Shown: positions 166-27,627 of the stretch, one piece after another | Position numbering within the stretch: position 1 is the first letter of the stretch | How the letters are laid out: each line of letters starts with the position of its first letter | IMG/VR virus record: IMGVR_UViG_3300025881_000002 | Direction: 5' to 3' (one strand) | DNA: 64,000 nt | Source: a virus | The notes under the pieces: generated by a model | What the model saw: only the letters and a program-made list of their open reading frames with translations | What the model was told of the DNA's origin: nothing | Databases searched by the model: none | Made by a program: the position numbers and the translations under genes

Positions 166-537
166 TCAACTCTTGTTACTTTTGTTGTTTTCATTATACC
201 ATTCTATAAATTTAATTACTACATAATAAACTGCTTCTAATTTAGATTTCATAATTACTTTTTCAGGACTTTCAGGAATGCATCCTGCTATAGCTCTAAA
301 AGTATCTTTTTGTTCTAAATATAAACTAAATTCACAATAATGAGAATTTATATTTATTTTAGGTAAAGTTGATTCATCTTCATATAAATATTCAATCTTT
401 TCAACAATTTGCATTAACCAATCCCATGATTTATGATATTTTAAATCATATTTATCAATAAAAAACTTATTATCATCAATTTTTAATTCAAACTTTCTAA
501 TAAGTTTATTACCATTTAATACAAAATTCTTCTCCAT
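166..537 (-). CDS. hypothetical protein
   Basis: 123-aa ORF. Its start overlaps the stop of the upstream UDG-like gene, so it is the distal member of the same minus-strand operon. No recognisable motif. Confidence 0.5.
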   Translation of the reverse strand: MEKNFVLNGNKLIRKFELKIDDNKFFIDKYDLKYHKSWDWLMQIVEKIEYLYEDESTLPKININSHYCEFSLYLEQKDTFRAIAGCIPESPEKVIMKSKLEAVYYVVIKFIEWYNENNKSNKS

Positions 538-1207
538 TATTTTCTCTTATTATATCATTAGCTTTTACAAAGTTATCACATTTCCAATCTGTTTTATTAT
601 GAGCTGAAGCTGCTGGATGTATTGCTTTTAATACATAACATTGTTTACTTAAATCATAAACATCAGTAGTTTCATATTTTTGAGCATTATTACCCCATAG
701 CATAACTATTAAACCTGGATTATTTTCACTAATAATTTTTAAAATTTGTTTAGTAAATCTATCCCATACTTTAAAATGAGAAGTAGGTTTATTACGAGTT
801 ACAGTTAAAGCTGTATTAAGTAATAAAACACCTTGATCTGCCCAATCTTCTAATGTTGGGTCAAAATCAAGATTAAATTCCTTATATACTTCTCTTTCTA
901 CAGATTCAATAATTTTTGTTAATGAAGGACTTGTTTTTAATATATAGTCTTTATTAGCAAAAGCTAAACCTGTAGCATTACCATCAAAGTAAGGATCTTG
1001 TCCTAATATTACAACTTTTATCTTCTTAGGATTACATAATTTAAAAGCTTTAAATACATCTTTTTTATCAGGGTATATTATCTTTTTATCATATTCATTC
1101 TGTAGATATTGTAATACTTTTTTCATATAAGGAGAAGATACAAGATCCCTTACTTCAGGGATCTTATACCATTCACCTAAGTGTTTAGTCCAATTCATTA
1201 ATTCCAA
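509..1207 (-). CDS. ung: family-1 uracil-DNA glycosylase-like protein with atypical motifs
   Basis: Collinear with E. coli/human UNG by eye: VVILGQDPYF (GQDPYH motif), GLAFA, GVLLLNTALTV (LLLN), MLWGNNAQ, and HPAASAH in place of HPSPLSAH. Confidence 0.8.
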   Translation of the reverse strand: MELMNWTKHLGEWYKIPEVRDLVSSPYMKKVLQYLQNEYDKKIIYPDKKDVFKAFKLCNPKKIKVVILGQDPYFDGNATGLAFANKDYILKTSPSLTKIIESVEREVYKEFNLDFDPTLEDWADQGVLLLNTALTVTRNKPTSHFKVWDRFTKQILKIISENNPGLIVMLWGNNAQKYETTDVYDLSKQCYVLKAIHPAASAHNKTDWKCDNFVKANDIIRENNGEEFCIKW

Positions 1208-2742
1208 AAATTATCTTTAGTTAAAGCTCCATACATAGAATCAAATTTAGCTTCATTTTTACCTAAATAATCTTTTTTAGCTTTAAGAGTTTCCATTATT
1301 TTAGTTCTTAAAGAATTATAAGATACATATCTTTCAATAATATCCTTAAATTTAAGAAGAGGTAATGATTTCTTAATAACATATTCTAATTTATTACTTG
1401 AAGATTTTAATTCTTTATACAAATCTGAAGTATTATCAGCTAGTTTATCAGAATTAATATTTACAAATTTAACAAATGTAGAACAGAATATTAAAAAATT
1501 AACTACTTTTTCAAATTCAAACGTTGGTGAATGTTGTCTAAATTCTAAAGTTTTCTTATTACCAAAAATTATAGGTACTAAATTTAACCAAGTATATCTA
1601 GAATGAATATTCCATTTAGATGTACCTTTAGGATCACTAGGATGCTTTTTAACTTTTTTAAGATCATTATTATAATTATCATAACTTCTACTGTCAGAAG
1701 CCATATAAAATAATCTAGCAAACTTTTCTTTTAAAGTTTTAGGTTCATTAATATTATCATGAACAGATTTAGCAATTTTTTTAGAATAATCTTTTTCTCT
1801 AGGATTATTATGATAACCTGTATTACCTCTTTTGTAAAAAGGTTGCATTTCAAATAATTCATCTTGTAAAAGATATCCTAAATTATAAGAAGCTAATATA
1901 GAATTTTCTTCTCTTTTAAGACCTCCTACGTGAATATGCAATGCACATTTTATATCAAATTTAGTACGCTTTTTAAGTTCTTCACAAATACCTTTTAAAG
2001 CATATAAACCTTTTTTACCAGATAAAGGTATAGTAACATATTCTAAACCGTCAATACTACCATCTCTTAAAGCTAAAACACCATATTTATAACATAATCT
2101 TTCAGCAACATAACCTGTAGAAGTTTCAAATTCTACACCAAAAGTAATTCCATTATCTTCTAACCAATCACCTAAAACATTTAACTGATTATTAGAGTAA
2201 TCTGGTTTAAAATGAGAATTAAATATATTTTTAGTTATCCCTTGAGAAAATCTACTATCATAAGGTAATCTTGATTTATTAATAATTTTATTACTAATTT
2301 CATTAAGAAACTTTGCTGTAATAGATGAATGTTTAGTACTATAAAAAATACCATCTCCTAAACGTTCTTTATATCCTAATTTTAAAGCTATTTCTTCAGA
2401 TATACAATGTAAATCTTTAGATACTTTATTAGGATCATCACGTAGAACAACATTTTCAACTAAATTAGGTGTATAAAAACCTATAATAGGTTCTTCATTA
2501 TTAATATCTACAATACCTGATTTTAAATGATTTTTATGAATTAAAACATATTTTTTTACATTATGATCATATTCTATAAGACCATTATTAAATCTATGAT
2601 ATTGATCTTCAATTTTATAGCATTCACCACTATCTTTTATTGAAACATCACCAACTAAATAATATTGACCTCTTATTCTTTTACAGTCTGATCTTTTTGC
2701 TTTTTTACCTGTAAAAGTTTTAATAATTCTGTTTTTATCCAT
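1198..2742 (-). CDS. Amidoligase_2-family (glutamine-synthetase-like fold) carboxylate-amine ligase
   Basis: Motifs FGVEFETS, LRDGSIDGLEYVTIP, CALHIHVGG and TLEFRQHSPT match the putative amidoligase family signature (E-x-E, H-x-H, EFR). Confidence 0.75.
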   Translation of the reverse strand: MDKNRIIKTFTGKKAKRSDCKRIRGQYYLVGDVSIKDSGECYKIEDQYHRFNNGLIEYDHNVKKYVLIHKNHLKSGIVDINNEEPIIGFYTPNLVENVVLRDDPNKVSKDLHCISEEIALKLGYKERLGDGIFYSTKHSSITAKFLNEISNKIINKSRLPYDSRFSQGITKNIFNSHFKPDYSNNQLNVLGDWLEDNGITFGVEFETSTGYVAERLCYKYGVLALRDGSIDGLEYVTIPLSGKKGLYALKGICEELKKRTKFDIKCALHIHVGGLKREENSILASYNLGYLLQDELFEMQPFYKRGNTGYHNNPREKDYSKKIAKSVHDNINEPKTLKEKFARLFYMASDSRSYDNYNNDLKKVKKHPSDPKGTSKWNIHSRYTWLNLVPIIFGNKKTLEFRQHSPTFEFEKVVNFLIFCSTFVKFVNINSDKLADNTSDLYKELKSSSNKLEYVIKKSLPLLKFKDIIERYVSYNSLRTKIMETLKAKKDYLGKNEAKFDSMYGALTKDNFWN

Positions 2743-2750
2743 TGTTATTA

Positions 2751-4589
2751 TTACACATTTTGATTAATAGAATTTACTGCTTCTGAAATTGGTTTTAAGC
2801 CATTTTCTAAAGTTTCTGTAAACTCTATAATCATATTAGTTAATTTACTATTTGACTTATACTCTTTTAATTCTTGTACGCTTTCTATAGCTGCGTCAAA
2901 ATTAGACATTACTTCAAATACAGTATCTATTTCATCTATACTACCTAATTCCATCATAGAATTAATTTCTTCTTCAAAAGTAGAATCTTCTACATCATCC
3001 TCTTCTTCATCTTCAAGTTTAGAAGAAGTTATAGAGGCGTTTTCAAAAATATCAAGAGTATTAAAATTAGCACTGTCATATTCTATCATTTCATCTTTTA
3101 AGGATGCTTTGGTTAATATACCATTATGGACAGTATAAACAACATAACTTCCAGCCATTATTATTTGACCACTAAACATTTTACTATCTTTAGTAATAGC
3201 TTGTTTAGCTCTTGTTATAACATCCTCTTTTTTTATCCTATCTAAATCAATAATAGGATGAACAGACATGTCAGAATAATCTTCAAATGTAGGTTCTTTT
3301 TTTCTAGCTAATGAAGGATTAAGACAAAACATATAGTCTTCTTCTGTTTCTAAAAGAACTCCATTATGAAAATAAAATAAATCTGCATCTTCGATATTTC
3401 CAAAATTGATATTTTCAGGCTGGGTTAAAGAAGAATCTAAAAAACTAAAATCTGATAATTTACTTTTAAGTTTATTAATATCATCTCCAATTTTAACATA
3501 ACCAATTTGATCTATAAATATGTGAATACCACTAACTCTTTTATTTTCAGAATCAAACCATCTTAGTTTGTTAAAGTTGATTTCTTGATACGTATTTTTA
3601 ATATATTTCTTTTCATAAAATAAATTATTTATAGCGTGATCATTAGTATTCATATCATCATTAGAATTTGAATCTAATGTTCTATTATAACCTATTCTAC
3701 TATTTGTAGTAGATTTTGGTTTAGTAGTATTAGCAAACTCTTTCTTTTTAGTTTCATAATAGTCAATAACATTACTTCTATCTATAACACATTTTTTAAC
3801 TATTTTACCAGCTTTTATCTCATAGATTCTATTAGGAGCAACTTCAAATATATTTTTTTTATCCTCTTCAACATTAATTATTGCTAATAATGAATCTTTT
3901 AAAGATGAAATATACATGCTACCATCATTCTCTTGCCAATAATATAAAGGTCTTTCGTCCCTTTCATAAGTATTAGTAAAAGTATCTTGTTTAGATTTAC
4001 CTCTAAATAAATACATAGTATCAGGGTTTTCAGAACTATGCATTAATAATGCAGCAGCACCATAATACTGTTCTAAAACTTTAATATTAGCATCATCTTT
4101 GGATATAATTTCTAATAATATTTGACTATCAATTTTACCAGTAGCATCAATTCCATATTCTCTAGCTATTTGATGATAATTTTTAAGTGTTCCATTATGA
4201 GCACCTATAAAATAACCTTCTTCACCATAATCAAATTTAAAAGGGTGAGCAGCAGAAATAGTATGTTTACCTACTGTAGCATGTCTAGTATGACCTATAA
4301 CTACTGTAGATTCTTTTGGATGAGGAGTTGTATTTTTGATTATATAATCTTGATATTCAGATATCACTCCAATACCTTTGTATAACTCACCATTTACAGC
4401 AACTCCACAAGAGTGTTTACCTCTCTCTACATTATACATACCTAATTTATCAAATTTATCTTTAGAAAATTTATCTGAGCTACTTCCTACCCATCCAAAT
4501 AAACCACAAGATAAAACTGATGAATTTTTATTCTTTCTTACGAGTAATAATACATAATGTATTAATATTAATATTAAGATTGTTTTCAT
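2751..4589 (-). CDS. class-II (Ntn) glutamine amidotransferase domain protein with about 300-aa unknown acidic C-terminal region
   Basis: SCGLFGW, RGKHSCGVA, IGHTRHATVG, AHNGTLKNY and DSQIL resemble the PurF/GlmS/AsnB Ntn-GATase motifs. The nucleophile Cys is preceded by a 27-residue hydrophobic leader, which may be a propeptide. Confidence 0.7.
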   Translation of the reverse strand: MKTILILILIHYVLLLVRKNKNSSVLSCGLFGWVGSSSDKFSKDKFDKLGMYNVERGKHSCGVAVNGELYKGIGVISEYQDYIIKNTTPHPKESTVVIGHTRHATVGKHTISAAHPFKFDYGEEGYFIGAHNGTLKNYHQIAREYGIDATGKIDSQILLEIISKDDANIKVLEQYYGAAALLMHSSENPDTMYLFRGKSKQDTFTNTYERDERPLYYWQENDGSMYISSLKDSLLAIINVEEDKKNIFEVAPNRIYEIKAGKIVKKCVIDRSNVIDYYETKKKEFANTTKPKSTTNSRIGYNRTLDSNSNDDMNTNDHAINNLFYEKKYIKNTYQEINFNKLRWFDSENKRVSGIHIFIDQIGYVKIGDDINKLKSKLSDFSFLDSSLTQPENINFGNIEDADLFYFHNGVLLETEEDYMFCLNPSLARKKEPTFEDYSDMSVHPIIDLDRIKKEDVITRAKQAITKDSKMFSGQIIMAGSYVVYTVHNGILTKASLKDEMIEYDSANFNTLDIFENASITSSKLEDEEEDDVEDSTFEEEINSMMELGSIDEIDTVFEVMSNFDAAIESVQELKEYKSNSKLTNMIIEFTETLENGLKPISEAVNSINQNV

Positions 4590-4599
4590 TTAATTTATT

Positions 4600-5418
4600 T
4601 TAAGCTAATTGTTTATCATTTAAGTTATTAAGAACTTTATCTAAGTTCTTTAAGTTAACAGTTTTGTCACTGTTTAAACATGATTCTACTAATTCTTTTA
4701 ATTCTTTATTAGTTTTCTTACTATTATTTGCAAATTCAATTGCTTTTAAGGTTCTATTCCATACATCAGTAATAGATTCTTCATTACGTAGAAAATAACC
4801 TCCTAGAGATCTACATTCTACTCCATAATCTTTATCTCTAGAATCACCAATTTTTCCATACAATAATCTACGATTATGCACATCTAAATCTTGATTAATT
4901 AAAGGTAAAGTAACAAACAGTTCAAAACAAAGTACTAATCTATCGTTAGTTTCTTCCTCAGGATATTCATAACCTATATGAATATGCATCCCAGCAGATC
5001 TTAAATTTCTATCTTCTTCTGATAATAATTCAATGTTGAGTTCAACTGATTGTTCATCTAAAACATTATAAGATGGTGAGCAACCAAATATATTTGCTTT
5101 CTCATCTTCTAATATCTTTTTAGTAGCTATTTCACTACTAGAATAATATAATTCCTTATCTAAAGGAGCTAAAATTGTTTCTATATAATTTTTAGAATGG
5201 TCTACTGATTTTAAGAACACTTCTAAATTGTTAGTAGGTGGAGTATTAAATTCAACAAGAATATTATCTTCTTGAACAAAACAACCTTTACCTATATCTA
5301 TAGGATTATCTTTCGTACCTTTAAAAAGATTAATTGCAGATGATAATTCACCTGATTTGTCTTTAATAAAAATTTCAGGATCTGATCCTATAAGTACATT
5401 TTTTATACTATAACTCAT
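4600..5418 (-). CDS. phiEco32-type COOH-NH2 ligase (GS/GCS2-like amidoligase)
   Basis: GSDPEIF near the N-terminus, then VEFNTPP, SAGMHIHIGY and GVECRSLGG. This pattern fits the phage COOH.NH2 ligase family. Confidence 0.65.
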   Translation of the reverse strand: MSYSIKNVLIGSDPEIFIKDKSGELSSAINLFKGTKDNPIDIGKGCFVQEDNILVEFNTPPTNNLEVFLKSVDHSKNYIETILAPLDKELYYSSSEIATKKILEDEKANIFGCSPSYNVLDEQSVELNIELLSEEDRNLRSAGMHIHIGYEYPEEETNDRLVLCFELFVTLPLINQDLDVHNRRLLYGKIGDSRDKDYGVECRSLGGYFLRNEESITDVWNRTLKAIEFANNSKKTNKELKELVESCLNSDKTVNLKNLDKVLNNLNDKQLA

Positions 5419-6088
5419 TTAATAATAATTTGTTTAATAATTCATAACTATATTCTTTAAAACCTTTACTTGAATAACTTCTTTCAGGATGACCTTGAAT
5501 AGCTAAAGATCTAGTATTTTTGTAATATACTATTTCTGGCTCTTTAAAATCTTTAGGCACTGGGAAATCTTTTCCTTCACCTGATTCATATCTAGTAGAT
5601 ATCTTTTTTAATGTAGTTCCTAATAATTTGTAATGTTTAGAATCTATATTATTAGGATACATCATTTGATGATGAGTAGATATTACATTAATAGTTTTAC
5701 CTTCAGATGTAATAATATTATGACTTGAAAGATGATTTGTTACATGTTGTATAACTTTACCTCCTGATAGAGCTGTTAATAATTGAGCACCCCTACAAAT
5801 ACCCATTTTAGGTATTGTAACAGGATATTTATTAAACATTACTGATTCAGTAATATCTCTTCTATTATTAACTCTAGTCATATGATGAATCTTATCTTCT
5901 TTATAGATATAAGGATTCACATCTTTACCTCCAGTAAATAATATTAAATCAATTCTAGCCAAAGGATATTTTTTATTAGGTCTATCTAAAAATGTACAAT
6001 TATATTTATCTTGAAAAAATCTTTGAACATCTATTGATAAATATTTTTTATTTGTTAGTATTACTAAATTTTTTTTAGGCTCTGTCAT
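5408..6088 (-). CDS. class-I glutamine amidotransferase / peptidase C26 (gamma-glutamyl hydrolase, PuuD-like)
   Basis: Cys-His-Glu triad context: MGICRGAQLL, THHQMM, AIQGHPE. Confidence 0.8.
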   Translation of the reverse strand: MTEPKKNLVILTNKKYLSIDVQRFFQDKYNCTFLDRPNKKYPLARIDLILFTGGKDVNPYIYKEDKIHHMTRVNNRRDITESVMFNKYPVTIPKMGICRGAQLLTALSGGKVIQHVTNHLSSHNIITSEGKTINVISTHHQMMYPNNIDSKHYKLLGTTLKKISTRYESGEGKDFPVPKDFKEPEIVYYKNTRSLAIQGHPERSYSSKGFKEYSYELLNKLLLNEL

Positions 6089-6977
6089 ATTTAAGTTTTA
6101 ACATTTTAGGAATTTCTTCTATATACTGTTTAGTAACAAAAGTTAATTCTTCTTGATTATCTCCAAAACTAGGTGCAGAGTTTATTTCAACAACTATAAA
6201 TTCAGAATAATCTCTTTTTCTATTTTTAGAATCAGTAGAAGATTGAATTCTTAAATCTACAGCTCCAAAATCGAGTCCAACAGCATTAAGGGCTTTAACA
6301 CTATGTAATACAACATCGTCCCAATTAACTGGTTTATCAAACAACCCAGTTTCTGAGTTTTCCATAATCCAAACGCAGTTATCATCGTTTCTATACCATT
6401 TTTTTTCATCTTCAGTTTCTCTTTTAAGCATTTTTCTACAAGTATAGAAGCAACCTTCACTATTTACATGAAGTCTATATTCTCTAGAGTAATTATAATA
6501 CTTTTCAAAAATATAAGATTTACAATTCTTACCTTTCATCCAAGCTTGCAATTCTTCAGGAGTATTATGTTTTGTATTACCTTTACCTCTACTACCAAAT
6601 AATGATTTAGAAATAATAGGATATTGAAGATCATTAATAGATAATATTAAATCTTCATTTGAATCCATTAATATAAAGTTAAGTTTTTCAGACCATAGGT
6701 AACCTACAGCTGTCTTAACTTTTCCTTTAACAAAACAACGTTTCATTCTTAACTTACTACTACTATTTCTAATAGCATCAATAGTATTAAGTTCAATTCT
6801 ATCACCTCCATTAGATACTGTATCAGATTGATCTGTAGTAGATCCTAATCTAATAATAGATTTAAATGGTAAAAGTGGTAGAGTTCTATTTTTTAACCTT
6901 AATATTGAATGAGAAGGATGTCTAGATCTAACCATAGGTCTAAACTTAGTGTAATTTTTCTTTTTAATTATAGTCAT
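6075..6977 (-). CDS. ATP-grasp ligase (RimK/glutathione-synthetase-like)
   Basis: PIISKSLFGSRGKGN (P-loop-like Gly-rich loop), YIFEKYYNYSREYRLHV, and FGAVDLRI...FIVVEINSAPSFG (Mg/ATP-binding E-x-N). Confidence 0.7.
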   Translation of the reverse strand: MTIIKKKNYTKFRPMVRSRHPSHSILRLKNRTLPLLPFKSIIRLGSTTDQSDTVSNGGDRIELNTIDAIRNSSSKLRMKRCFVKGKVKTAVGYLWSEKLNFILMDSNEDLILSINDLQYPIISKSLFGSRGKGNTKHNTPEELQAWMKGKNCKSYIFEKYYNYSREYRLHVNSEGCFYTCRKMLKRETEDEKKWYRNDDNCVWIMENSETGLFDKPVNWDDVVLHSVKALNAVGLDFGAVDLRIQSSTDSKNRKRDYSEFIVVEINSAPSFGDNQEELTFVTKQYIEEIPKMLKLKYDRA

Positions 6978-7420
6978 TTTAATAATTTTGTTAAGTTTTC
7001 TAAATTATATTCTGGTTCTCTAAAACCTTTTACCTTCATTTTATTTAAATTATTATGAGGTACAGAATTTAATTTTATTAAAAAAGGATATTTAATATCT
7101 CTACCGTGTGATTCCAATCTTATAACAGAATTATAAAAAACAAAACCTTGTCTATCTCCACAATATCTACCTGTTACATTAGAACTTAAAAGATATTTTT
7201 TAAGAATAGTAAAAAATCTTTTTTTAGTTAATGAAGAATAATAAGTTTTACAAACATTATATAAATCAATTATAGATCTTTGAAGAGAAATACAATGAGG
7301 TTGATTACACTCATAATTTTTATAAGTATATTGACATCCATATCTTCTACTTTCAAAAAACCATTTTATAAAATCTTTTATATATCTAGGTTTTTTTTCT
7401 ATTTTTACATATAATTTCAT
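6974..7420 (-). CDS. hypothetical protein (Cys-rich, basic) inside the ligase operon
   Basis: 148-aa ORF. Its stop overlaps the ATP-grasp start. No recognisable motif. Confidence 0.5.
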   Translation of the reverse strand: MKLYVKIEKKPRYIKDFIKWFFESRRYGCQYTYKNYECNQPHCISLQRSIIDLYNVCKTYYSSLTKKRFFTILKKYLLSSNVTGRYCGDRQGFVFYNSVIRLESHGRDIKYPFLIKLNSVPHNNLNKMKVKGFREPEYNLENLTKLLK

Positions 7421-7425
7421 TTATT

Positions 7426-7821
7426 TTAATATTTGTTTCTATAATCAGTATAATCACCTGATTCAATTAAAGTTGCATTACTAGCTCCATCGTGAAAATA
7501 TAATGAAGCTTCTATTTCTTCACCACCATCAAGTTCTACAGGTACAGGTTCTCTATAGTAACCTGTTTTAGAGGTATCTCCAGGTCTATAACCTTCAAGA
7601 CCATCTACTATAGGTAATTGTTCAGGAGTAACATCATACACTTCAACTTTAATCTTGCTAATAGGTTCTTTTGAATTTACAAAAGGTATCCCACTTGCTG
7701 TTAATTTATATTTATCTTTAGTCCATCCAGAATCAATAAGTTTTGAATTACCTAATACTCCGTGATTTCCATAACCTTCTCTTAATGTTCCGTAAACTGC
7801 TATTTTTATATTTTTATTCAT
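7426..7821 (-). CDS. gamma-glutamyl cyclotransferase (AIG2/GGCT-like)
   Basis: VYGTLREGYGNH N-terminal motif, VDGLEGY, and YYRE with a conserved Glu. Size is about 130 aa. Confidence 0.75.
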   Translation of the reverse strand: MNKNIKIAVYGTLREGYGNHGVLGNSKLIDSGWTKDKYKLTASGIPFVNSKEPISKIKVEVYDVTPEQLPIVDGLEGYRPGDTSKTGYYREPVPVELDGGEEIEASLYFHDGASNATLIESGDYTDYRNKY

Positions 7822-7823
7822 AT

Positions 7824-8906
7824 TTAATAAGGTAAATTGTCGTTAATTTTTAATTTTTTTAATTTTTCTGAAATTAAATCAGTTAATATCTTTTTTGCTT
7901 TTTCTTTCCCAAAATTTTTTACTAAATCACTAAAGTCTTTAGTTTTATATTTATCAGGTATTTTAATATTTATAATATTAAATTCATCACATAATTCTGA
8001 TGCAAATATCTGACCATAATTAGACTCTTTATCAAAATCATTATCATATAATATAAATATAGTTTCAAATCTTCTTTTTAATTCATTAACTACATTTATT
8101 TTAGGTTTTATTTTTTCATTTTGTAAAGATACCGATGCTAATCTACAAGTTTCATTTATAGACATTACATCTTTAAGAGATTTGGTCCAAATTAATATTT
8201 CATCAGACACAGGTAATTCTCTCCATCCTTGCCATATAGAAGTATTTACATCACTAAACCATTTATATTTACTAAAAGGTTGATATATTTTAAAAGTGGC
8301 TTCACCATCTTTGAATTCATAATAAGCATAAGAATATTTATCAGCTTTTACTGTTTTTTCTTTACTATTAGATTTAAATATAATATAGTCAACTGGAAAA
8401 ACATTATATTTTAAAAGTGTAATATGGTCTATACCAAAAGAATTCCAATATTTTATATCATAATCTTTCCAAGGTCTTACTGTAACACCTATTTTTACTT
8501 TATCATTTATTTTTACAGGTTTAGCACCTGTTTCAGGCTTATACTTTTTATATTCATTTTTAATAGAATTTTTACAATGATATATATTATCTAGCCAAAA
8601 ATCTACAGCTATTCTACTATATACATCAAACCAACTATTATATCCAAAATAATATTTTACAAATTGAAAAGCATCTCCTCCTCCCAATACAAAATCATTA
8701 TATAATATATCTCCAGTAGAATTTCTAAATAATGCAAAACTAGGTGTATTATCTTTTCTAAAAGGAGATGAAAAAGGTTCTTTTAATTTAATATCATTGT
8801 TAATATATTTTTTGAATATATCCCATTCAGTTATATTTTTTAATATTACTTCTCTACTTATAATTGGTTTATTTACATAAGGTAATTTATTCAAGTTTAT
8901 TTTCAT
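7824..8906 (-). CDS. DNA primase (Toprim domain, degenerate zinc-finger region)
   Basis: SPFRKDNTPSFALF resembles the CHC2 finger motif CPFHxEKTPSF but lacks the Cys residues. C-terminal Toprim signatures are LIWTKSLKD and ILYDNDFD (DxD). Confidence 0.7.
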   Translation of the reverse strand: MKINLNKLPYVNKPIISREVILKNITEWDIFKKYINNDIKLKEPFSSPFRKDNTPSFALFRNSTGDILYNDFVLGGGDAFQFVKYYFGYNSWFDVYSRIAVDFWLDNIYHCKNSIKNEYKKYKPETGAKPVKINDKVKIGVTVRPWKDYDIKYWNSFGIDHITLLKYNVFPVDYIIFKSNSKEKTVKADKYSYAYYEFKDGEATFKIYQPFSKYKWFSDVNTSIWQGWRELPVSDEILIWTKSLKDVMSINETCRLASVSLQNEKIKPKINVVNELKRRFETIFILYDNDFDKESNYGQIFASELCDEFNIINIKIPDKYKTKDFSDLVKNFGKEKAKKILTDLISEKLKKLKINDNLPY

Positions 8907-8916: not shown

Positions 8917-8946
8917 AGTAAAAAAGGGAGCTTTTACACTCCCTTC
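8917..8946 (-). terminator. rho-independent terminator
   Basis: On the minus strand: AAGGGAG-tgtaaaag-CTCCCTT followed by a T-run. It lies immediately downstream of the 8954 stop. Confidence 0.6.
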
Positions 8947-8953
8947 TATTATA

Positions 8954-9628: not shown

Positions 9629-9841
9629 TTAAGAATAATATTCTGTTATAGCGTTATTGACTATTATAAGATCATTGTCTATGTTTTCTTCTTCAAACAT
9701 ACCCATTGGTGTCTTACATGTGTCATCTCCTCCTGTAACTGTTCTAAATACGTATTGAACAGGATTTCCTGGACTTTTAACAGCTTCTGCATAAAGTACT
9801 ATACTTGAAAAACTTTCTGGGAAGAATTTCTTAATTTGTTT
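9629..9841 (-). CDS. Sak4/AAA_24-like RecA-type ATPase, exon 2
   Basis: KQIKKFFPESFSSIVLYAEAV...YVFRTVTGGDDTCKTPMGMF continues the AAA_24 C-terminal pattern after exon 1 ends at ...AVQG. Confidence 0.65.
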   Translation of the reverse strand, partial: KQIKKFFPESFSSIVLYAEAVKSPGNPVQYVFRTVTGGDDTCKTPMGMFEEENIDNDLIIVNNAITEYYS

Positions 9842-9883
9842 CATTTTTACATATACATTTTCATATATATACCGACTATATCT

Positions 9884-10657
9884 TTATTCACGTTCATAAC
9901 TCCAATAATAACCTTTGAAAAAACCAGTTTTACGTATATAATAAGATAATGTACCACTACTTCCATTTACAGATTCTGCTGCTTTTTTAACAGAATTATA
10001 ATTAGTAATGTATTTTTTATCTTTAGTATATTGATATACTTTTTTTCTAGTTTTAACTTTTTTAATATAAGGTTTTATTTTTTTAGGATAATTTTTAGTA
10101 AAATATACAAATTGTTTATTTTTACATATTCTATTATCAGATTGCAAACAATGATATATAGAACTTGAAGTTACATTTAATTCTTTAGAGGCTTCTAAAG
10201 AACTATTATGTATTTTTTCAAAGTTACCATTAATATCATACTGAACTATTTTCTTTTTATTTAAATTTAAATTATATAGTTCAACTCTATCTGCTTTTTT
10301 TTGAATATTATATCCATTTTTTCTATTATAAGGTTTTAATTTATCTAAATAATATTGTTCTAATTCTATTATTTTATTTTTATCTATACATATTTTAATT
10401 ATATTAAATTCAATATTATCATTACCATATTTATTAAATGCATTTTGCAAATAATTATTAGGATGAATATTTTGTTTTAATAATCTTAAATGTTTAGACC
10501 ATCTACAATAAAATCCTTTATCAGAAATTTTATTAGACTTTAAACCTGCTATAGTAGAACCAATATATATTTTATTAGTTCCTTTAAAAGTTATGTTGTA
10601 AATACCAGTAGAACTAAGTTCTTCTATATTTACAAATTTTAATAGTTGTTTCTTCAT
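9884..10657 (-). CDS. GIY-YIG homing endonuclease with NUMOD-like C-terminal DNA-binding repeats
   Basis: GIYNITF...KIYIGST...RWSKH...NAFNKYG...EQYYL...GYNI. The start is set at MKKQLL because a TATCTTTG -7 box lies 4 nt upstream. Confidence 0.85.
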   Translation of the reverse strand: MKKQLLKFVNIEELSSTGIYNITFKGTNKIYIGSTIAGLKSNKISDKGFYCRWSKHLRLLKQNIHPNNYLQNAFNKYGNDNIEFNIIKICIDKNKIIELEQYYLDKLKPYNRKNGYNIQKKADRVELYNLNLNKKKIVQYDINGNFEKIHNSSLEASKELNVTSSSIYHCLQSDNRICKNKQFVYFTKNYPKKIKPYIKKVKTRKKVYQYTKDKKYITNYNSVKKAAESVNGSSGTLSYYIRKTGFFKGYYWSYERE

Positions 10658-10661
10658 AATA

Positions 10662-10669
10662 CAAAGATA
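10662..10669 (-). promoter_or_regulatory. Bacteroidetes-type -7 box (TATCTTTG) for the intron endonuclease
   Basis: The 20-mer TTGTATCTTTGTATTATGAA is identical to the plus-strand promoter/start at 36636-36655. Confidence 0.5.
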
Positions 10670-10906
10670 CAACAAAAATTCGTGAATACCTACTTTTTCA
10701 ATATAAATTTTATACTAATAATTTATACTTACTCCCTCACGGGATAGTCTGTGAACGTTCTCTATTTTAAAAGAGCTTCGCTGCTGATTATCTAATCTTA
10801 TATATTTTTAAACATTCACGCTTATCATTTATGATTACGTTGTAGTTATATAAGCTTAAAGACGTTCCAGCAATTAAATAGGTTTAATCAGGGCAAACAT
10901 TAATCA

Positions 10907-11365
10907 ACCCTGCACAGCTATTTCCATTCTAGGAAAGCCTGATTCATCATATACTATTTCAGGATGACAAAATAAATATACTACTAAATCATCTCTCAAC
11001 TTTTCGTTGATAATATTAATAAGTTTATAATGACTAAATGAGAAATTACCCCATTTTTCAAAACCTTTATTTTTTACAAAGCTAGGCGCCATTACTCCAT
11101 CAGTCATCATCCTACTCCAAGTATCAATTATAACTGTATTTACATTATCATTACTTTGTACTTCTTTTAATTTTGTTATTACTTCATCTACATTACTTGT
11201 TTGTAAGTAATTTCCTTTTTCTTCACTGTATTTGCTACGAAATTTAGGAAATGGTAAATCTTTTTGATCAGAATTTATAATCACAGTTTTATCTGGATCT
11301 AAATTTCTTGCACTAGTTGATTTACCCATTCCTGATTTCCCAACAATAAATACTAATTGTCCCAT
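10907..11365 (-). CDS. Sak4/AAA_24-like RecA-type ATPase, exon 1
   Basis: Walker A VGKSGMGKST, Walker B-like VIIDTWS, LVVYLFCHPE. The ORF ends in a stop directly after the P1 U. Confidence 0.7.
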
Positions 11366-11432: not shown

Positions 11433-12035
11433 TTATTTTGTTAAAAATATTTGCATACTATTACCTTTATATTTAAATAAATCTTTTTTCTTTTTAAGGA
11501 TTATATTTTTATATATAGGACTATGATCTCCAAAATTAATACCTCTTCCTTGAGATTTATCTATTACATTATCTTTTATACATTTAAGTAAAAAATATAA
11601 AGAATCAGTTCCTCTACAATTATTAAATATATCTTTTTTAAATTGATCAATATTAAACTGACTAGCTCTATACCAATTTAATCTAATAATATTTAATAAT
11701 AAAAGATTTTTAGAATAAAAAAAACAAGCTCTATTTTTTACTCTATCTTTATCCCAATCAATTAATTTATATCTAATATATTTCTTGTTATTTATTTTAA
11801 CAATTTTACAAGACGTTATATTATTTATTAATTGAACTAATCGTGGTAAATCTTTAGTATTATTAAATTTATAAATATAAATATATTTAGTTTTTAAAGG
11901 TAATCTTTGTAAACCTGACCAACAAGCAGTTCCTAAATGAAAATGTTCAAATTTAACTTTACTTGAAGAACTTATATTATCATATATTTTATCTTCTATT
12001 TTTATACCATAATAACAAGAATAATTATTTCTCAT
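11433..12035 (-). CDS. hypothetical protein
   Basis: 200-aa ORF in the minus-strand array. No motif recognised. Confidence 0.5.
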   Translation of the reverse strand: MRNNYSCYYGIKIEDKIYDNISSSSKVKFEHFHLGTACWSGLQRLPLKTKYIYIYKFNNTKDLPRLVQLINNITSCKIVKINNKKYIRYKLIDWDKDRVKNRACFFYSKNLLLLNIIRLNWYRASQFNIDQFKKDIFNNCRGTDSLYFLLKCIKDNVIDKSQGRGINFGDHSPIYKNIILKKKKDLFKYKGNSMQIFLTK

Positions 12036-12048: not shown

Positions 12049-12390
12049 TTAATTACTATAAGCCAACATTTCTGCTGGTATTCTTGGGTATGATTTATAA
12101 TCAAATAATGTAAAATCTTTAATATCAATATTACCATTATCAATATGCCTCATAATATCATTATTTTTAAAATTATCATTATTTAAATTAGTTTGAGTTA
12201 ATGTACTAATCATTAATTCACTATCACCATACTTATCAACATCCCTACTTAACTGCTCTTTAACAGCATCTAAATGAGGTTCATAAATATGTACGTTGCT
12301 TAAATCACCTATAATACCTTTTGGTATCATATTAGTCATCTTACCTATAATCTGTGCTAAAAGTCCATAAGAAGCAATGTTAAAGGGTAA
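12049..12390 (-). CDS. thyA: thymidylate-synthase-like enzyme, exon 2
   Basis: LPFNIASYGLLAQII...VHIYEPHLDAVKEQLSR aligns to E. coli ThyA LPFNIASYALLVHMM...THLYSNHMDQTHLQLSR. Confidence 0.85.
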   Translation of the reverse strand, partial: LPFNIASYGLLAQIIGKMTNMIPKGIIGDLSNVHIYEPHLDAVKEQLSRDVDKYGDSELMISTLTQTNLNNDNFKNNDIMRHIDNGNIDIKDFTLFDYKSYPRIPAEMLAYSN

Positions 12391-12431
12391 CATTTTATTC
12401 CATAAAGTGCGTAACTACTTTATGCGTTTAA

Positions 12432-12798: not shown

Positions 12799-13482
12799 TT
12801 ATTTTTTATAAAATTGTGGATAATTTTTGGATTTTACTCTATTTTGAATAGCAGTTATAGACATATTATAATATCTTGCTGCTTCTGCATAAGAAGGAAA
12901 TTCTTTTTGTTCACATATAATTATATGACCTTGATTAATACCTTCTTTATACAGTTTATTTTCATCTTTTTCTTCTCCTATAATGTTCCAATTTCTAAAT
13001 TTACTATTTAATGATTTACATCTATATCTAATAGTTGTAACTGGTAAATTTAAAGCAATTGAGGCTTTATTAAAAGAATTAAATATTTCACCATTTATAT
13101 TAACAGAAATAGCATTTCCAGGTAAACTACCTTTTCTACTTTCTGATATTTTTTTATAAACTTCTTTTTGTCTTTTTAATGGAAATGTTTTTATTATATC
13201 TCCACCAACAGAATTTGGTGATATATTATAAGATTTTGTAAAATCTAAATTATCTAGAAACTCTTGTTCAGTTTCTTTAATATTATTAACTTCAGCTATT
13301 ATTTTAAATTCAAAAAATTCTTCACCATGTTTATTATAAGAACTCTGTAAATGTTTATTTACATGTTTATTAGCTCTTAAATGCCATAAATGTTGTTTTT
13401 TTCTTGTTTTAAAATCAACTGTACTACCAATATAATATTTATTGGTATTTAAATTTGTAATTTTGTAAATATAACCTTTCAT
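12799..13482 (-). CDS. GIY-YIG homing endonuclease (I-TevI-like arrangement)
   Basis: GYIYKITN...KYYIGST...RKKQH...SSYNKHG...EQEFL...YNISP. C-terminal HTH-like repeats. Located in the P6 loop of the td-like intron. Confidence 0.85.
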   Translation of the reverse strand: MKGYIYKITNLNTNKYYIGSTVDFKTRKKQHLWHLRANKHVNKHLQSSYNKHGEEFFEFKIIAEVNNIKETEQEFLDNLDFTKSYNISPNSVGGDIIKTFPLKRQKEVYKKISESRKGSLPGNAISVNINGEIFNSFNKASIALNLPVTTIRYRCKSLNSKFRNWNIIGEEKDENKLYKEGINQGHIIICEQKEFPSYAEAARYYNMSITAIQNRVKSKNYPQFYKK

Positions 13483-13528: not shown

Positions 13529-13648
13529 GTTATTTACTCATTATTTTATAATAATATTTATTATATAAAAAAATTTAGCACGGGATTGTCCTTAACTTAA
13601 TATTAGGAGTTTCCCCGTTTAACTAGTTTTAACCTCAGCTTACTACCT

Positions 13649-14476
13649 ACCGAGGAATGTATCCACACTATGTTGATGCCATTTTAAAGTGAATTGATAT
13701 TTAGGTATAAACTCTTCACAAGAATCATGTTCTGGTCCAAAAAATATTTGATAATATTTATTTTCACATTTTATAACATCTTTATGTTCTAAATTTTTAC
13801 AAGCTTTTTCAAACCAATCATTTTCTTTAAGTCCTGTATAATCAGCAACATAATCAAATTCAATAGGTTCAACCAATACTTCAAAACTCCAATGACAAGG
13901 TGTTAAAGCACATTGATCTTTCTCTGCTGGATTCCAGAATGTTACTGTCTTCTTAGTAGCCATTGGATTAGTTTTAAGAATGTTTATAAGTTCTGCAAAT
14001 TGGTCTATAGTATTAAACTCTGGACCATTATCTACTTCACTAGAACCTCTCCAATTTCTCAATTGAGCACCATAACCTCTACCTATATCTCCAAAATTAT
14101 AGTTTTTATTATTTGAAATATTTCTTTCTACACCTATTTTTTTAATAAACTCATCATAAGGTTTAATTCCAAATTTACCTTCACCTTTACTTAAATAATA
14201 ATTATAAGTATCTTTATTCCAAATATTAATATCATTATCTACAAGATATTTAATATTAGTATCTCCTCTTAAAATCCACAATAACTCTCCTACAACAGAT
14301 TTCCACGCTAACTTTTTAGTAGTTAGCGCAGGAAAACCATCTCTAAAATCGTGTACAATCTTATAATCTGATATTTGACGCCTATATACACCTTTACGAT
14401 TAGGATCTTCATATCTATATCCTTCATCTAAGATGTGTTGTAATAATTTTTTATATTCATAATCTATTTTTGCCAT
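13649..14476 (-). CDS. thyA: thymidylate-synthase-like enzyme, exon 1
   Basis: GFPALTTKK, GELLWILRGDTN, YGAQLRNW, FWNP, ALTPCHWSF (catalytic Cys), HQHSVDTFLG. Ends exactly at FLG, preceding LPFNIASY of exon 2. Confidence 0.85.
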
Positions 14477-25518: not shown

Positions 25519-26108
25519 TATTGTATATATTTAAGTGCTAATTCAGTTAAGTATAATTTAGAAAAGAAAGTTACTTTAATAAAATCCATTATATTAATTG
25601 CTATTAAAAAACAACCTAATAATAATGGTACTAAAGAAACTACAATTGTTGATATACCTGTGTATTTACTAACATAATATCTATTTAGTATTTTAACTAA
25701 AGGTGCTGGACGTTTAAAAGCATGTTCATCATTCTCTTCAAGTTCATCATTGTATACAGCTCCTGATATCTTAGATCTACCTATACTACTATAAAACTTT
25801 CTAGATAACCAGAATATAAGCAATAAACCTATAATAATAGGAATAAGATGACTTATTGAAGTGAAAATAATATACTGTTTAGTAATTATTAATCCTTCTG
25901 TCACAATAAGGTCTACAGCTTGAGATACAGTTGTTTTAGTGCCTTCAATCATTTGCTTAGTATAATGTACAAATGTTTGCTCAAATGTGCTTATATCTTC
26001 TAATAAAGGCTCTTCAGCAGGTATATTAGTTTCTACTTCTTGTGCAGTAATTGTTGTTACTCCTAACATTGTGACTGCTAAAGCAATCATTTTAAATCTT
26101 GTTTTCAT
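25518..26108 (-). CDS. secreted/membrane hypothetical protein
   Basis: 196-aa ORF with a signal-like N-terminus (MIALAVTMLGVTTITAQ) and internal hydrophobic helices. Confidence 0.55.
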   Translation of the reverse strand: MKTRFKMIALAVTMLGVTTITAQEVETNIPAEEPLLEDISTFEQTFVHYTKQMIEGTKTTVSQAVDLIVTEGLIITKQYIIFTSISHLIPIIIGLLLIFWLSRKFYSSIGRSKISGAVYNDELEENDEHAFKRPAPLVKILNRYYVSKYTGISTIVVSLVPLLLGCFLIAINIMDFIKVTFFSKLYLTELALKYIQ

Positions 26109-26131
26109 TTTTTAAATTTAGTTGTTAATAA

Positions 26132-26335
26132 TTAATTAAATAGTTTATTTTTTAATTCTTCTTTTGTTTTACCAATATGATTTTCTTCAATGCTTGAAAT
26201 TATACCTCTTTCCCATAAAAGATTATATGTTATTATAGAAATACAATCAATATGTATTGATGAAATTTTACATTTAGTTATCATATTTTTATGAATGATA
26301 TAACATTCATCATAAGGTTTAAATTCTGTTTCCAT
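26132..26335 (-). CDS. hypothetical protein
   Basis: 67-aa ORF immediately downstream of the tRNA pair. Confidence 0.45.
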   Translation of the reverse strand: METEFKPYDECYIIHKNMITKCKISSIHIDCISIITYNLLWERGIISSIEENHIGKTKEELKNKLFN

Positions 26336-26351
26336 TAATATTTAATTTTAG

Positions 26352-26425
26352 TGATTCTGCTAGGATTTGAACCTAGAACCTTCTCCTTAGAAGGGAGATG
26401 CTCTATCCAGTTGAGCTACAGAACC
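26352..26425 (-). tRNA. tRNA-Arg (anticodon TCT)
   Basis: The reverse complement folds as a cloverleaf: acceptor GGTTCTG/CAGAATC, D arm GCTC-AACTGGATA-GAGC, anticodon arm TCTCC-CTTCTAA-GGAGA, T arm CTAGG-TTCAAAT-CCTAG. Confidence 0.9.
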
Positions 26426-26509
26426 ATTCGGAGGTTATCCACTTTTACCTCCTTCAAGCCTTTTTTAAGTGGACCTAGTATTTAACGGGGCTTAATCCTT
26501 ACTAGGTAG

Positions 26510-26582
26510 TGGTCCCAAACAGATTTGAACTGCTGACCTATCCGTTATGAGCGGATTGCTCTACCAACTGAGCTATGAGACC
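26510..26582 (-). tRNA. tRNA with CAT anticodon (elongator Met or Ile2; not initiator-like)
   Basis: Acceptor GGTCTCA/TGGGACC, D arm GCTC-AGTTGGTA-GAGC, anticodon arm ATCCG-CTCATAA-CGGAT, T arm AGCAG-TTCAAAT-CTGTT. Has a G1-C72 pair and no GGG/CCC anticodon stem. Confidence 0.85.
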
Positions 26583-26795
26583 ATTTATACTTATTAATAC
26601 TACTTTACATAAAAGTGATTAACAATTATGTTCTGTACTAACATCTTCATTATTACTCTTTTAAAGTTTATAATTTATAGTTTTCCTCCGAGATATAATT
26701 TCTATTTCCTAGGTAGACATATCACTTACGGTCAGTATTATTAAAATGAAGGTAAATTATTCCATCTTTGTATAATAAGTATAATATTTTAAAAT

Positions 26796-26854
26796 AACAC
26801 CACATCTCAGGTATGTACCTGAAAGAGAGATTGTAGAGATTCTGATGTGGTGTT
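26796..26854 (-). terminator. compound hairpin downstream of gene 26861-27616
   Basis: An 11-bp outer stem AACACCACATC/GATGTGGTGTT encloses the palindrome TCAGGTACATACCTGA. The same palindrome family recurs at 36017-36032. Confidence 0.45.
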
Positions 26855-26860
26855 AAGTTA

Positions 26861-27616
26861 TTATAATTTTGATTTTACTAATTCTTTAAGTTCTAAAGCA
26901 TGTTTAGTCCATATATTATTACTACTACGTTTTAATTTCGGATAAACTTTAAATACATCATTTAAAGATAAACAAGGTTTATTCATTAAAATATACTCTT
27001 CAGCAGCTTCTTTTGTTGAAAAATACCAATATTTTTCAGTATCGTGATAAAAAGATATTTTAACATTATTAGTAAAATTACACCAATAAGTTAATTTAGT
27101 AACCCACCAATAAGTATCACCTTCAAATATATCAACACCATCTTCTGTTGTGAATAATGGTTTTTTAACTTTTGATAAATCTGATAATAATATTTCAACA
27201 CCTAAAACAAATTTCCTAAAGTCATCCATACTAATTCTTGTAAATAAATGAAGTCTCTCATCTGTTTTATAATCAGTATGATATTGAAGAACTTTATTTA
27301 GATTAGAATATGCATTGTTAGGATTACTTATTCTAAAAAACTTATATTTAGGACAATATTCTGTAATAAATTTAAGATTTTCTTCTGTTTCTGGAACAAC
27401 AAACCAATAATCAGGTAATCTCTTTATAGTTTTTGTCTCAGTAATTTCTTCCCAGTTCTCAGTATACTTTGTAATTTCAGACAATGTAAATTCTAAAAAT
27501 AAAGAATCATGTCTTCTTTTGTATTGTGCAATATTAGACCCTTCAGGAAATGTAATAATATCTCCTTCTTGTAATCCTGAATCACAAAAATTCTTAATTA
27601 ATTTAAATTTTCTCAT
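26861..27616 (-). CDS. hypothetical protein
   Basis: 251-aa ORF. Its N-terminus (MRKFKLIKNF) and internal F-T-x-DG-x-x-F-x-GD motif resemble the downstream frameshifted gene. Confidence 0.55.
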   Translation of the reverse strand: MRKFKLIKNFCDSGLQEGDIITFPEGSNIAQYKRRHDSLFLEFTLSEITKYTENWEEITETKTIKRLPDYWFVVPETEENLKFITEYCPKYKFFRISNPNNAYSNLNKVLQYHTDYKTDERLHLFTRISMDDFRKFVLGVEILLSDLSKVKKPLFTTEDGVDIFEGDTYWWVTKLTYWCNFTNNVKISFYHDTEKYWYFSTKEAAEEYILMNKPCLSLNDVFKVYPKLKRSSNNIWTKHALELKELVKSKL

Positions 27617-27627
27617 TTTTTAATTTT

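Follow-up and report, generated by a model that had tools for sequence, protein, structure and literature searches.

A 64,000-nucleotide stretch of the metagenomic virus record IMGVR_UViG_3300025881_000002 (hereafter the window, meaning the whole stretch that was analysed) carries, between its DNA primase and uracil-DNA glycosylase (UDG) genes, a cassette predicted to encode three amide-bond ligases and three to four glutamine- or gamma-glutamyl-cleaving enzymes. The locus is a further copy of a known, uncharacterised phage cassette, and its folds, conserved catalytic residues, conserved gene pairs and gene order, and restriction to phages are directly observed. Our preferred reading, to which we assign a probability of roughly 0.45, is that these proteins would form a soluble, cytoplasmic, ATP-driven enzyme set that makes and cleaves amide linkages joining L-glutamate or L-glutamine to a small metabolite or peptide with an amine or a carboxylate, DNA being an unlikely substrate. 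The carrier is a crAss-like phage of ~101.6 kb related to the Steigviridae/Asinivirinae; among cultured phages, Cellulophaga phage phi14:2 (Crassvirales, Steigviridae, Asinivirinae) stands closest to it.

The cassette belongs to a run of ten co-directional genes on the minus strand that extends from the primase, at 8906, to a 123-aa protein ending at 166. The nine open reading frames (ORFs) that an initial annotation of the window had predicted for the cassette region all lie on this strand at the coordinates first given, and independently made gene calls that accompany the source contig (ENA ERZ27295504 k141_1629412) match them, the sole discrepancy being a UDG start three codons later. Profile searches against Pfam, PHROG and NCBIfam confirm the folds that had been assigned to the ligases, the glutamine amidotransferases (GATases) and the gamma-glutamyl cyclotransferase (GGCT), and these folds uphold the chemistry proposed with them, namely that carboxylate-amine ligases dependent on ATP are teamed with glutamine/gamma-glutamyl amidohydrolases and a gamma-glutamyl(amine) cyclotransferase.

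Among the ligases, the Amidoligase_2 enzyme (1198..2742, -) is a long form of its family (PF12224, 38.4 bits against a cut-off of 22; phrog_2443, 1.5e-66). Its AlphaFold2 (AF2) model, with a mean per-residue confidence (pLDDT) of 93 and a predicted template-modelling score (pTM) of 0.90, comprises an N-terminal beta-rich domain (residues 1-135, nt 2338-2742) followed by a catalytic domain resembling glutamine synthetase (GS) and glutamate-cysteine ligase (GCL). The best Foldseek matches in the PDB are plant GCL (2gwc), YbdK (1r8g), 1-naphthylamine GS, E. coli GshA and GS, at E values of ~1e-3 to 0.1; going by the model, every PDB neighbour of the catalytic part, remote as these neighbours are, activates the gamma-carboxylate of glutamate. 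Catalytic-residue conservation in this enzyme and in the class-II GATase was assessed over 42-43 homologues of 28-68% identity, and in the Amidoligase_2 alignment E204, E206, D227, E234, H269, H271, R277, E400 and R402 are invariant. The phiEco32-type COOH-NH2 ligase (4600..5418, -), of GS/GCL-like fold, scores 24.9 bits against PF14395, 0.1 under the 25-bit cut-off, and its membership of that family is secured by phrog_3815 (1.8e-59) and by tblastn, which reaches the phiEco32-like, PaP3 and 7-11 genes at 1e-21 to 1e-28. The third ligase (6075..6977, -) is a RimK-like ATP-grasp carboxylate-amine ligase (phrog_2599, 3e-29; TIGR00768, 5e-9, under cut-off), whose orthologue in phage cr108_1 matches ATP-grasp Pfam models. 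Sequence searches of solved structures returned none related to Amidoligase_2 or the COOH-NH2 ligase, Foldseek searches with full-length models matched the catalytic domains alone and left the Amidoligase_2 N-terminal domain and the GATase beta domain without a match, and no cassette ORF gave the Gln-synt_C match in Pfam that a PuuA-type GS-family ligase would give.

The class-II GATase (2751-4589, -; PF13522, PF13230 and PF13537) consists of an N-terminal nucleophile (Ntn) domain (residues 28-270; 3780..4508, -; matched by the same three profiles), a disordered linker, a beta-rich domain (residues ~330-500; 3090..3602, -; pLDDT ~90), and an acidic disordered stretch and helical hairpin at the C-terminus (2751..3089, -). 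The acidic run can be read from the sequence; in the AF2 model residues 502-536 have pLDDT <50 and helices occupy 538-611. Its glutamine-pocket residues, C28-G29, R102, N132-G133 and D154, are invariant in 43 sequences, as befits a class-II enzyme. We take C28, R102, N132-G133 and D154 to be the counterparts of GlmS Cys1, Arg73, Asn98-Gly99 and Asp123, and the domain retains the residues by which the alpha-amino and alpha-carboxylate groups of glutamine or gamma-glutamate are bound. Foldseek matches the model to GlmS, PurF, AsnS and EgtC at 1e-10 to 1e-7, with GlmS and PurF at 1e-10. The beta-rich domain, whose conserved residues are R343, G354, G363, F381, G410, D418, S439, P445, G480, Y485 and G490, has no PDB relative detectable with its profile.

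A hydrophobic leader of 27 residues (MKTILILILIHYVLLLVRKNKNSSVLS; 4509..4589, -) ends directly before the nucleophile Cys28 of this GATase, beside which lies no in-frame start codon. Leaders of 24-31 aa with the pattern ..ILILLLIHYIG..FKPK.NTLS/CG (the slash preceding the nucleophile) occur in 29 of 43 family members; the others have a 13-aa leader (1/43) or begin with MCG or VCG (13/43). AF2 models the leader as a helix over residues 2-18, and it is the sole transmembrane-like segment among the cassette proteins, in which no signal peptides were found. Because Ntn amidotransferases require a free N-terminal Cys, the leader is most simply read as a pro-peptide that would be removed to free Cys28, and it may tether the pro-enzyme to the membrane. 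A lipoprotein signal was considered and rejected: a basic KPK-type spacer parts the hydrophobic core from the Cys, and the leader-adjacent Cys is the conserved Ntn nucleophile.

Two further enzymes point to gamma-glutamyl amides. The class-I GATase/peptidase C26 (5408..6088, -; PF07722, 67 bits; PF00117, 28 bits) is of the gamma-glutamyl amide hydrolase type. The Cys of its GICRG motif is kept in 6/7 aligned family members, as is the His of HPE, the P-E of which is invariant. Searched against solved structures, the family profile scores higher with Lin1909, 7d4r (1e-14) and PuuD (8e-10) than with glutaminase subunits, which together with the Pfam match identifies a hydrolase of the PuuD/SpuA type; 7d4r is a PuuD-like protein from P. 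aeruginosa that is labelled 'probable glutamine amidotransferase'. The homology data are best accommodated by an alternative that the initial annotation had listed, a chemistry of gamma-glutamyl-amines like that of PuuA/PuuD. The cyclotransferase (7426..7821, -), of AIG2/GGACT fold, matches the whole of PF06094 at 67 bits as well as phrog_2520; its YGTLR motif and LEGY glutamate are readable in the sequence, and its closest solved relatives are PH0828 and YkqA.

How well the cassette is conserved was asked in a census in which the Amidoligase_2 profile retrieved 80 IMG/VR loci, on contigs mostly of 95-105 kb, whose neighbouring genes were identified with profiles and single queries; 74 loci had enough upstream sequence to be counted, 77 for the UDG downstream. 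Because the loci share ancestry, these counts cannot be treated as independent. The cassette genes share one strand in 80/80 loci. The class-II GATase and the COOH-NH2 ligase are present in 74/74, a primase preceding the cassette in 73/74, the ATP-grasp ligase in 71/74, C26 (in 0 to 3 copies) in 65/74 and GGCT in 58/74. As to pairs, the class-II GATase adjoins Amidoligase_2, and the COOH-NH2 ligase adjoins the GATase, in every one of the 74; C26 adjoins the COOH-NH2 ligase in 65/74, GGCT lies near the ATP-grasp gene in 53/74, and the UDG follows the cassette in 60/77. The genes are therefore grouped more than by chance among these 74 related contigs. Since protein identity falls as low as 28%, gene order has been held over deep divergence within the clade.

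Two sequenced relatives carry the block in annotated form. In phi14:2 (NC_021806) g036-g042 are labelled primase, GGCT, ATP-grasp, COOH.NH2 ligase, aminotransferase, amidoligase and UDG, and the human-gut crAss-like phage cr108_1 has an equivalent, already annotated block without GGCT (gp028-gp035). Both share with the present locus the order primase, (GGCT), ATP-grasp, COOH-NH2 ligase, GATase II, amidoligase, UDG at 37-49% protein identity; phi14:2 differs in having neither a C26 gene nor the 148-aa protein described below, and cr108_1 in lacking GGCT and having two extra ORFs. Across the cr108-like gut group (L011 6956-8857; L085-L095) GGCT is replaced by two conserved ORFs of 329 and 300 aa without Pfam or PHROG match. 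A literature search found no account of the cassette in crAss-like phages. What is new here is its fixed placement between primase and UDG and its gene order in ~74 crAss-like metagenomic contigs, together with the conserved hydrophobic GATase leader and two further conserved, unrecognisable domains.

Beyond this clade, at least 319 phage records of GenBank contain the COOH-NH2 ligase according to tblastn (Pseudomonas 121, Escherichia 94, Vibrio 22, and others). The same families, differently arranged, are found in Kuravirus-like KBNP1711, UFV-P2, Salmonella phage 7-11 and cyanophage Lbo-JY46, and KBNP1711 and UFV-P2 share the set of ATP-grasp, class-II GATase and AIG2/GGCT genes that forms a co-directional cluster here. 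Copies in Kuravirus-like and LUZ24-like phages and in cyanophages repeat the conserved gene pairs. The GGCT end likewise adjoins a primase/helicase gene in KBNP1711 and UFV-P2, with transcription opposite; this placement of the GGCT end beside a primase gene is seen across differing primase types and with opposite transcription (L007 16789-19245; L008 13774-16176; L014 5069-7585). The long form of Amidoligase_2 occurs at only 7 loci among 185,579 species genomes, mostly on contigs of metagenome-assembled genomes (MAGs), three of them ~100 kb, whose viral status was not checked. The cassette is phage-restricted and mobile. It does not follow a universal rule of one dedicated GATase for every ligase, an idea that we rejected: in KBNP1711, UFV-P2 and 7-11 the COOH-NH2 ligase has a ~200-aa neighbour without a Pfam match or Cys/His motif, a member of a PHROG of unknown function. 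Genes of the NAPRTase/Nampt family lie no more than a few kb from the cassette in Salmonella phage 7-11 (L009 1999-4562), Leptolyngbya phage Lbo-JY46 (L010 4748-8957) and a MAG contig (L014 1395-2900), and 7-11 and Lbo-JY46 also carry PRPP-synthetase-like genes there, resembling the NARP1 NAD-reconstitution pair. A general link to NAD-reconstitution genes was rejected, only 1/80 crAss-like loci showing an NAPRTase-type neighbour.

The module itself has been described in phiEco32, 7-11, LUZ24/PaP3/tf/UFV-P2, RIO-1, PSA-HP1, PhiM6 and TC6 (PMC5498523, PMC11945000, PMC6256558, PMC3890496), and in several lineages it was placed in replication or early modules (PMC5498523). Genome papers credit it to Iyer et al. 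2009 and Hardies et al. 2013, as a set of GGCT, ATP-grasp, COOH-NH2 ligase, class-II GATase and Amidoligase_2 that may or may not include the class-I GATase/C26, the term 'peptidoglycan modification module' being, as those papers relay it, the name of Hardies 2013; other authors label the genes nitrogen-metabolism auxiliary metabolic genes. When the initial annotation stated that pairwise links between such genes had been known since the 2009 survey, it was right about the links and understated the rest, given that the whole cassette has been described and, in phi14:2 and cr108_1, annotated. Its further statement that no substrate, product or role has been shown holds: our literature search found no experimental paper, and neither GS-like ligase has a solved relative.

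What chemistry might such a gene set perform? Because recognisable relatives of every enzyme use L-glutamine or a gamma-glutamyl amide, and because the proteins are soluble apart from the leader, we favour a cytoplasmic glutamate/glutamine amide system. Amidoligase_2 and the COOH-NH2 ligase would each phosphorylate a carboxylate, by analogy with the structural neighbours the gamma-carboxylate of glutamate, and join an amine to it, and the RimK-like ATP-grasp enzyme would add one more residue. The Ntn GATase, made with its hydrophobic leader and presumably activated when removal of the leader frees Cys28, might either supply Amidoligase_2 with ammonia from glutamine or hydrolyse a gamma-glutamyl amide. 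The C26 enzyme or enzymes, usually encoded beside the COOH-NH2 ligase, would act on gamma-glutamyl-amines in the manner of PuuD/SpuA, while the GGACT-type cyclotransferase, encoded beside the ATP-grasp ligase, would release the amine and 5-oxoproline. The scheme would hence comprise three functional pairs (class-II GATase with Amidoligase_2, C26 with COOH-NH2 ligase, GGCT with ATP-grasp), probably expressed together with the replication genes; in it we infer the gamma-glutamyl chemistry, the pairing of ligases with cleaving enzymes, and the class of substrate.

A more speculative step is to name polyamines, or another abundant cytoplasmic amine, as the substrate. In P. aeruginosa, infected cells accumulate polyamines, replication of the phage genome is thereby inhibited, and the host's catabolic Pau/Spu genes are expressed at a lower level (PMC9992862). 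A gamma-glutamylation system brought by the phage and switched on together with its replication genes could counteract or buffer these polyamines, and the cassette may in this sense be a counter-defence that inactivates or buffers cytoplasmic polyamines that block replication.

Several points weigh against the cytoplasmic glutamate/glutamine amide system. Unless an oxidising step intervenes, hydrolysing or cyclising the ligated product gives back the amine; the Puu and Pau pathways need oxidase/dehydrogenase steps of the PuuB/PuuC type, no oxidoreductase was found among the cassette genes or their neighbours, and making bonds only to cleave them, with no other modifying enzyme in between, looks futile as amine catabolism. 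The structural matches of the GS-like ligases are remote (Foldseek E ~1e-3, TM 0.3-0.4), which makes the glutamate gamma-carboxylate an analogy, not a proof. Minimal cassettes (phi14:2 and several contigs) have no C26 and the cr108-like group no GGCT, so that one hydrolase per ligase is not universal, and in Kuravirus-like and LUZ24-like phages the neighbour of the COOH-NH2 ligase belongs to a different family. Finally, the hydrophobic leader could point to a membrane-proximal (envelope) target.

An envelope target has a precedent in bacterial MurT/GatD, a GATase-plus-ligase pair that amidates stem peptides and with which the conserved adjacent ligase and GATase genes of the cassette invite comparison. 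The ligases would here furnish peptidoglycan precursors with unusual peptide or amide bonds, for instance by amidating or lengthening the carboxylates of the stem peptide, the hydrolases would trim these bonds together with the cyclotransferase, and the conserved transmembrane-like leader could put the GATase pro-enzyme at the inner membrane, the site of lipid-linked precursors. Unusual peptide linkages in peptidoglycan, which would block superinfection or prepare lysis, are also the working hypothesis of the published accounts (PMC5498523, PMC11945000, PMC6256558, PMC10580990). We consider such a role unlikely all the same, for Pfam and NCBIfam searches of the cassette proteins gave no Mur-ligase, Ddl-type, NlpC/P60 or amidase match, the structural neighbours are L-Glu/Gln enzymes and not enzymes of D-Glu or diaminopimelate, and cleavage of the leader at Cys28 would leave the active enzyme untethered. 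Moreover, the pair of Amidoligase_2 and GATase has been reported in viruses assigned to the murein-less Poseidoniales archaea (PMC11706807), and an 'uncultured archaeal virus' GATase is among the structural matches. The same gene adjacency could mean instead that each GATase is the glutaminase subunit of the adjoining ligase, whereby ammonia channelled from glutamine would turn up to three carboxylates of one substrate into carboxamides and GGCT would have a side role. Two-subunit amidotransferases are typically encoded by adjacent genes (CarA/CarB, PabA/PabB, GatD/MurT), and here the adjacencies of class-II GATase with Amidoligase_2 and of C26 with COOH-NH2 ligase are invariant or nearly so, the class-II GATase keeps every glutaminase residue, and its extra conserved domain could dock a partner. 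The C26 family, however, is nearer to gamma-glutamyl-amine hydrolases than to glutaminase subunits, the minimal cassettes have three ligases and a single GATase, and a cyclotransferase kept in 58/74 loci is left without a role; these facts make an all-amidotransferase cassette distinctly unlikely.

Could the target be a protein or DNA? Ligases working in the manner of RimK, TTL or PafA might tag a host or phage protein with glutamate or a peptide, which the hydrolases and GGCT would reverse or edit. The ATP-grasp enzyme is indeed closest to the RimK family, GS-like ligases include the Pup ligase PafA, and the long acidic GATase segment and the small conserved Cys-rich protein that accompanies the cassette would suit such a system; peptide tagging has been proposed for related systems by the Aravind group (PMC4431377). 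Still, we found no conserved small tag-like ORF ending in Glu/Gln or Gly at the locus, the Cys-rich protein has no constant place in the cassette, and no target can be named. All characterised GGACT and C26 enzymes have, to our knowledge, small gamma-glutamyl-amines as their substrates, and protein tagging is, in our view, very doubtful. The initial annotation had itself preferred hypermodification of DNA or nucleotides, in which the cassette would attach or process an amino-acid-type adduct on a base or deoxynucleoside triphosphate and shield the genome from restriction, and this we now regard as highly improbable. Canonical DNA has no carboxylate and only poor amine nucleophiles to offer to such ligases, which makes it a poor substrate for carboxylate-amine ligases on general chemical grounds, and no DNA-binding domain was recognised in the Pfam scans or in the Foldseek matches of the GATase and Amidoligase_2. 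In its favour, primase adjacency of the cassette recurs in several lineages, and Lee et al. describe viral contigs in which Pfam domains of amidoligases and glutaminotransferases accompany 5-HMUDK and aGPT-Pplase2 (PMC8989533). The resistance of cassette-bearing Gordonclarkvirinae to restriction-modification, too, lacks an explanation (PMC11990801), and a glutamate- or glutamine-derived adduct on phage DNA or a nucleotide precursor might be the missing modification behind it, primase adjacency then reflecting a coupling to replication; we give this version scant credence, as the BASEL authors ascribe that resistance to a dCTP deaminase and a nucleotidyltransferase (PMC11990801), and as the DNA of the cassette-bearing phage tf was cut by five type II enzymes (RsaI, HpaI, EcoRV, SmaI and HaeIII) and could also be cloned (PMC3517423). 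A Pfam scan of 20 ORFs between 8.9 and 32.6 kb, with ORFs of less than ~120 aa and the late region outside it, gave no match to 5-HMUDK or aGPT-Pplase.

The contextual clues that had suggested DNA modification fail for the neighbouring genes as well. The UDG (509..1207, -), a downstream neighbour that belongs to the replication module, had been called atypical; it is a canonical family-1 enzyme, which passes the NCBIfam ung equivalog TIGR00628 (190.5 against 185.75), aligns with solved family-1 UNGs (3tr7) at 3e-35 and has the GQDPY, GVLLLN and HP motifs, with a Phe after GQDPY and HPAASA where HPSPLS is expected. Its adjacency is specific to the crAss-like lineage and absent from the Kuravirus-like, LUZ24-like and cyanophage copies. 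The ThyA-like gene, likewise described as atypical, appears to be a normal thymidylate synthase gene split by an insertion that bears a homing endonuclease. Its exons lie at 13643-14476 and 12049-12393 (-), the reading frame breaking after ...DTFLG and resuming at LPFNIASY, and once joined they pass the thymidylate synthase equivalog TIGR03284 (197 against 108) with PCH and PFNIASY retained. ThyA thus scores as a thymidylate synthase rather than a dUMP hydroxymethylase, a distinction for which sequence alone is not fully decisive. The insert holds a GIY-YIG ORF (12799-13482) that passes TIGR01453, 'group I intron endonuclease', and a 78-aa ORF; in relatives thyA is uninterrupted and encodes 359 aa.

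With respect to the locus as a transcription unit, the junctions from the primase to the 123-aa gene measure, in order, +2, +5, -4, -14, -11, +10, +8, -10 and -29 nt. The tight packing claimed for eight of nine junctions is therefore borne out for 9/9, each being an overlap or a gap of <=10 nt. According to the stored gene calls, equally tight spacing goes on through at least seven further genes as far as the ribonucleotide reductase gene; the notion of an operon is consequently sound as regards packing and fails as a delimitation, since packing that extends this far does not mark out the cassette as a functional unit. Its gene arrangement looks like a long early/middle transcription unit and not one that ends with the cassette. 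The primase (7824..8906, -; phrog_12622, 1e-72), an upstream neighbour and anchor outside the cassette, has a hairpin and T-run directly upstream (8922-8947), and at ~25% G+C, the composition of the window, a promoter/terminator scan of the locus was uninformative.

Neither of the two small proteins counted as operon members is fixed in the cassette. The small, basic, Cys-rich protein of 148 aa (6974..7420, -) has no Pfam, PHROG or NCBIfam match and 44 relatives among 1.84 billion representatives, with the family motif TY.D.EC..QC....RRSF.DLY..CKTYFP, invariant R48 and C87, and conserved Cys, Arg and Ser positions. In relatives it lies either within the cassette or upstream of the primase (20/74), and we rejected it as a cassette component or substrate: the family is genuine but its location shifts. 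The 123-aa protein (166..537, -) trails the UDG, as do its homologues in many related loci, and has no Pfam, PHROG or NCBIfam match.

Other features of the window lie further from the cassette. A Sak4-like AAA_24 gene (9629-11365, -) is split into an N part (10904-11365) and a C part (9629-9844), the latter matching residues 155-223 of a relative's unsplit protein (L002) at 55% identity, and a GIY-YIG/NUMOD1 endonuclease ORF (9884-10675) sits between the halves; an Rfam search of the split thyA and sak4-like genes gave no group I intron match. Between thyA and the Sak4-like gene, a basic ORF of 200 aa (11433-12035, -) without family match keeps its position in several relatives. A third GIY-YIG endonuclease ORF (PF01541) lies at 31902-32597 (-), and tRNA-Arg(TCT) and tRNA-Met(CAT) genes at 26351-26582 (-). 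The region 26000-36500 is sparse in ORFs, which are short and separated by gaps of several hundred bases, the larger ones being without a Pfam match; its genes could be fragmented or rich in introns, or they could be small early genes that have diverged strongly. Near 36.5 kb the coding strand and the sign of the GC skew both switch.

Why does this cassette deserve attention? Up to eight genes, ~7 kb in all, have been retained in small, streamlined genomes, and 15 years have passed since the first description. Throughout a large clade of crAss-like phages of ~100 kb, sampled in aquatic and gut metagenomes, the cassette is a constant presence, and the phages with its COOH-NH2 ligase include therapy candidates against Pseudomonas and E. 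coli. Solving its function could reveal a new phage metabolite, an envelope or DNA modification, or a counter-defence. The putative pro-peptide conserved on the Ntn amidotransferase and the invariant pairing of ligase with hydrolase genes offer handles for biochemistry, for which the cultured carriers (phi14:2, LUZ24, tf and the phiEco32-like BASEL phages) are better entry points than the locus studied here.

Comparison with known systems helps to place the cassette. Like the thymidine hypermodification clusters (PMC8989533), some of which hold amidoligase and GATase domains, it is phage-encoded and near replication genes; it differs in that their defining 5-HMUDK and aGPT-Pplase had no match among the 20 neighbouring ORFs scanned and that ThyA scores as a thymidylate synthase. 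With the Puu pathway of E. coli and the Pau/Spu pathway of P. aeruginosa it shares a GS-fold ligase and a C26 gamma-glutamyl-amide hydrolase, whereas its ligases are not of the PuuA type and resemble GS and gamma-glutamyl-arylamine synthetase only distantly in fold, PuuB/PuuC-type enzymes are absent, and an ATP-grasp ligase, an Ntn GATase and a cyclotransferase come in addition. Glutamate is added and later removed by BtrJ/BtrG in butirosin and by EgtA/EgtC in ergothioneine biosynthesis, and the gamma-glutamyl cycle is a further analogy for the chemistry proposed. BtrJ/BtrG resembles the cassette in pairing an ATP-grasp ligase with an AIG2-like gamma-glutamyl cyclotransferase, and EgtA/EgtC in combining a GCL-type ligase with a class-II GATase-like gamma-glutamyl hydrolase, EgtC being itself a Foldseek match of the GATase; the chemistry that intervenes in those pathways (carrier protein, decarboxylase, sulfoxide synthase) has no counterpart enzyme here. 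Closest of all are the cassettes of the phiEco32/LUZ24 type. The present one differs from them in its crAss-like carrier, its gene order and fixed primase-UDG position, the 135-aa N-terminal beta domain of Amidoligase_2 (within GenBank found only in phi14:2, cr108_1 and Lbo-JY46), a C26 enzyme in place of the podovirus ~200-aa family of unknown function, and the hydrophobic leader of its GATase. It shares with them five families (Amidoligase_2, COOH-NH2_lig, ATP-grasp, class-II GATase and AIG2/GGCT), encoded co-directionally in an early/replication region where the GGCT end often adjoins the primase (PMC3890496, PMC5498523).

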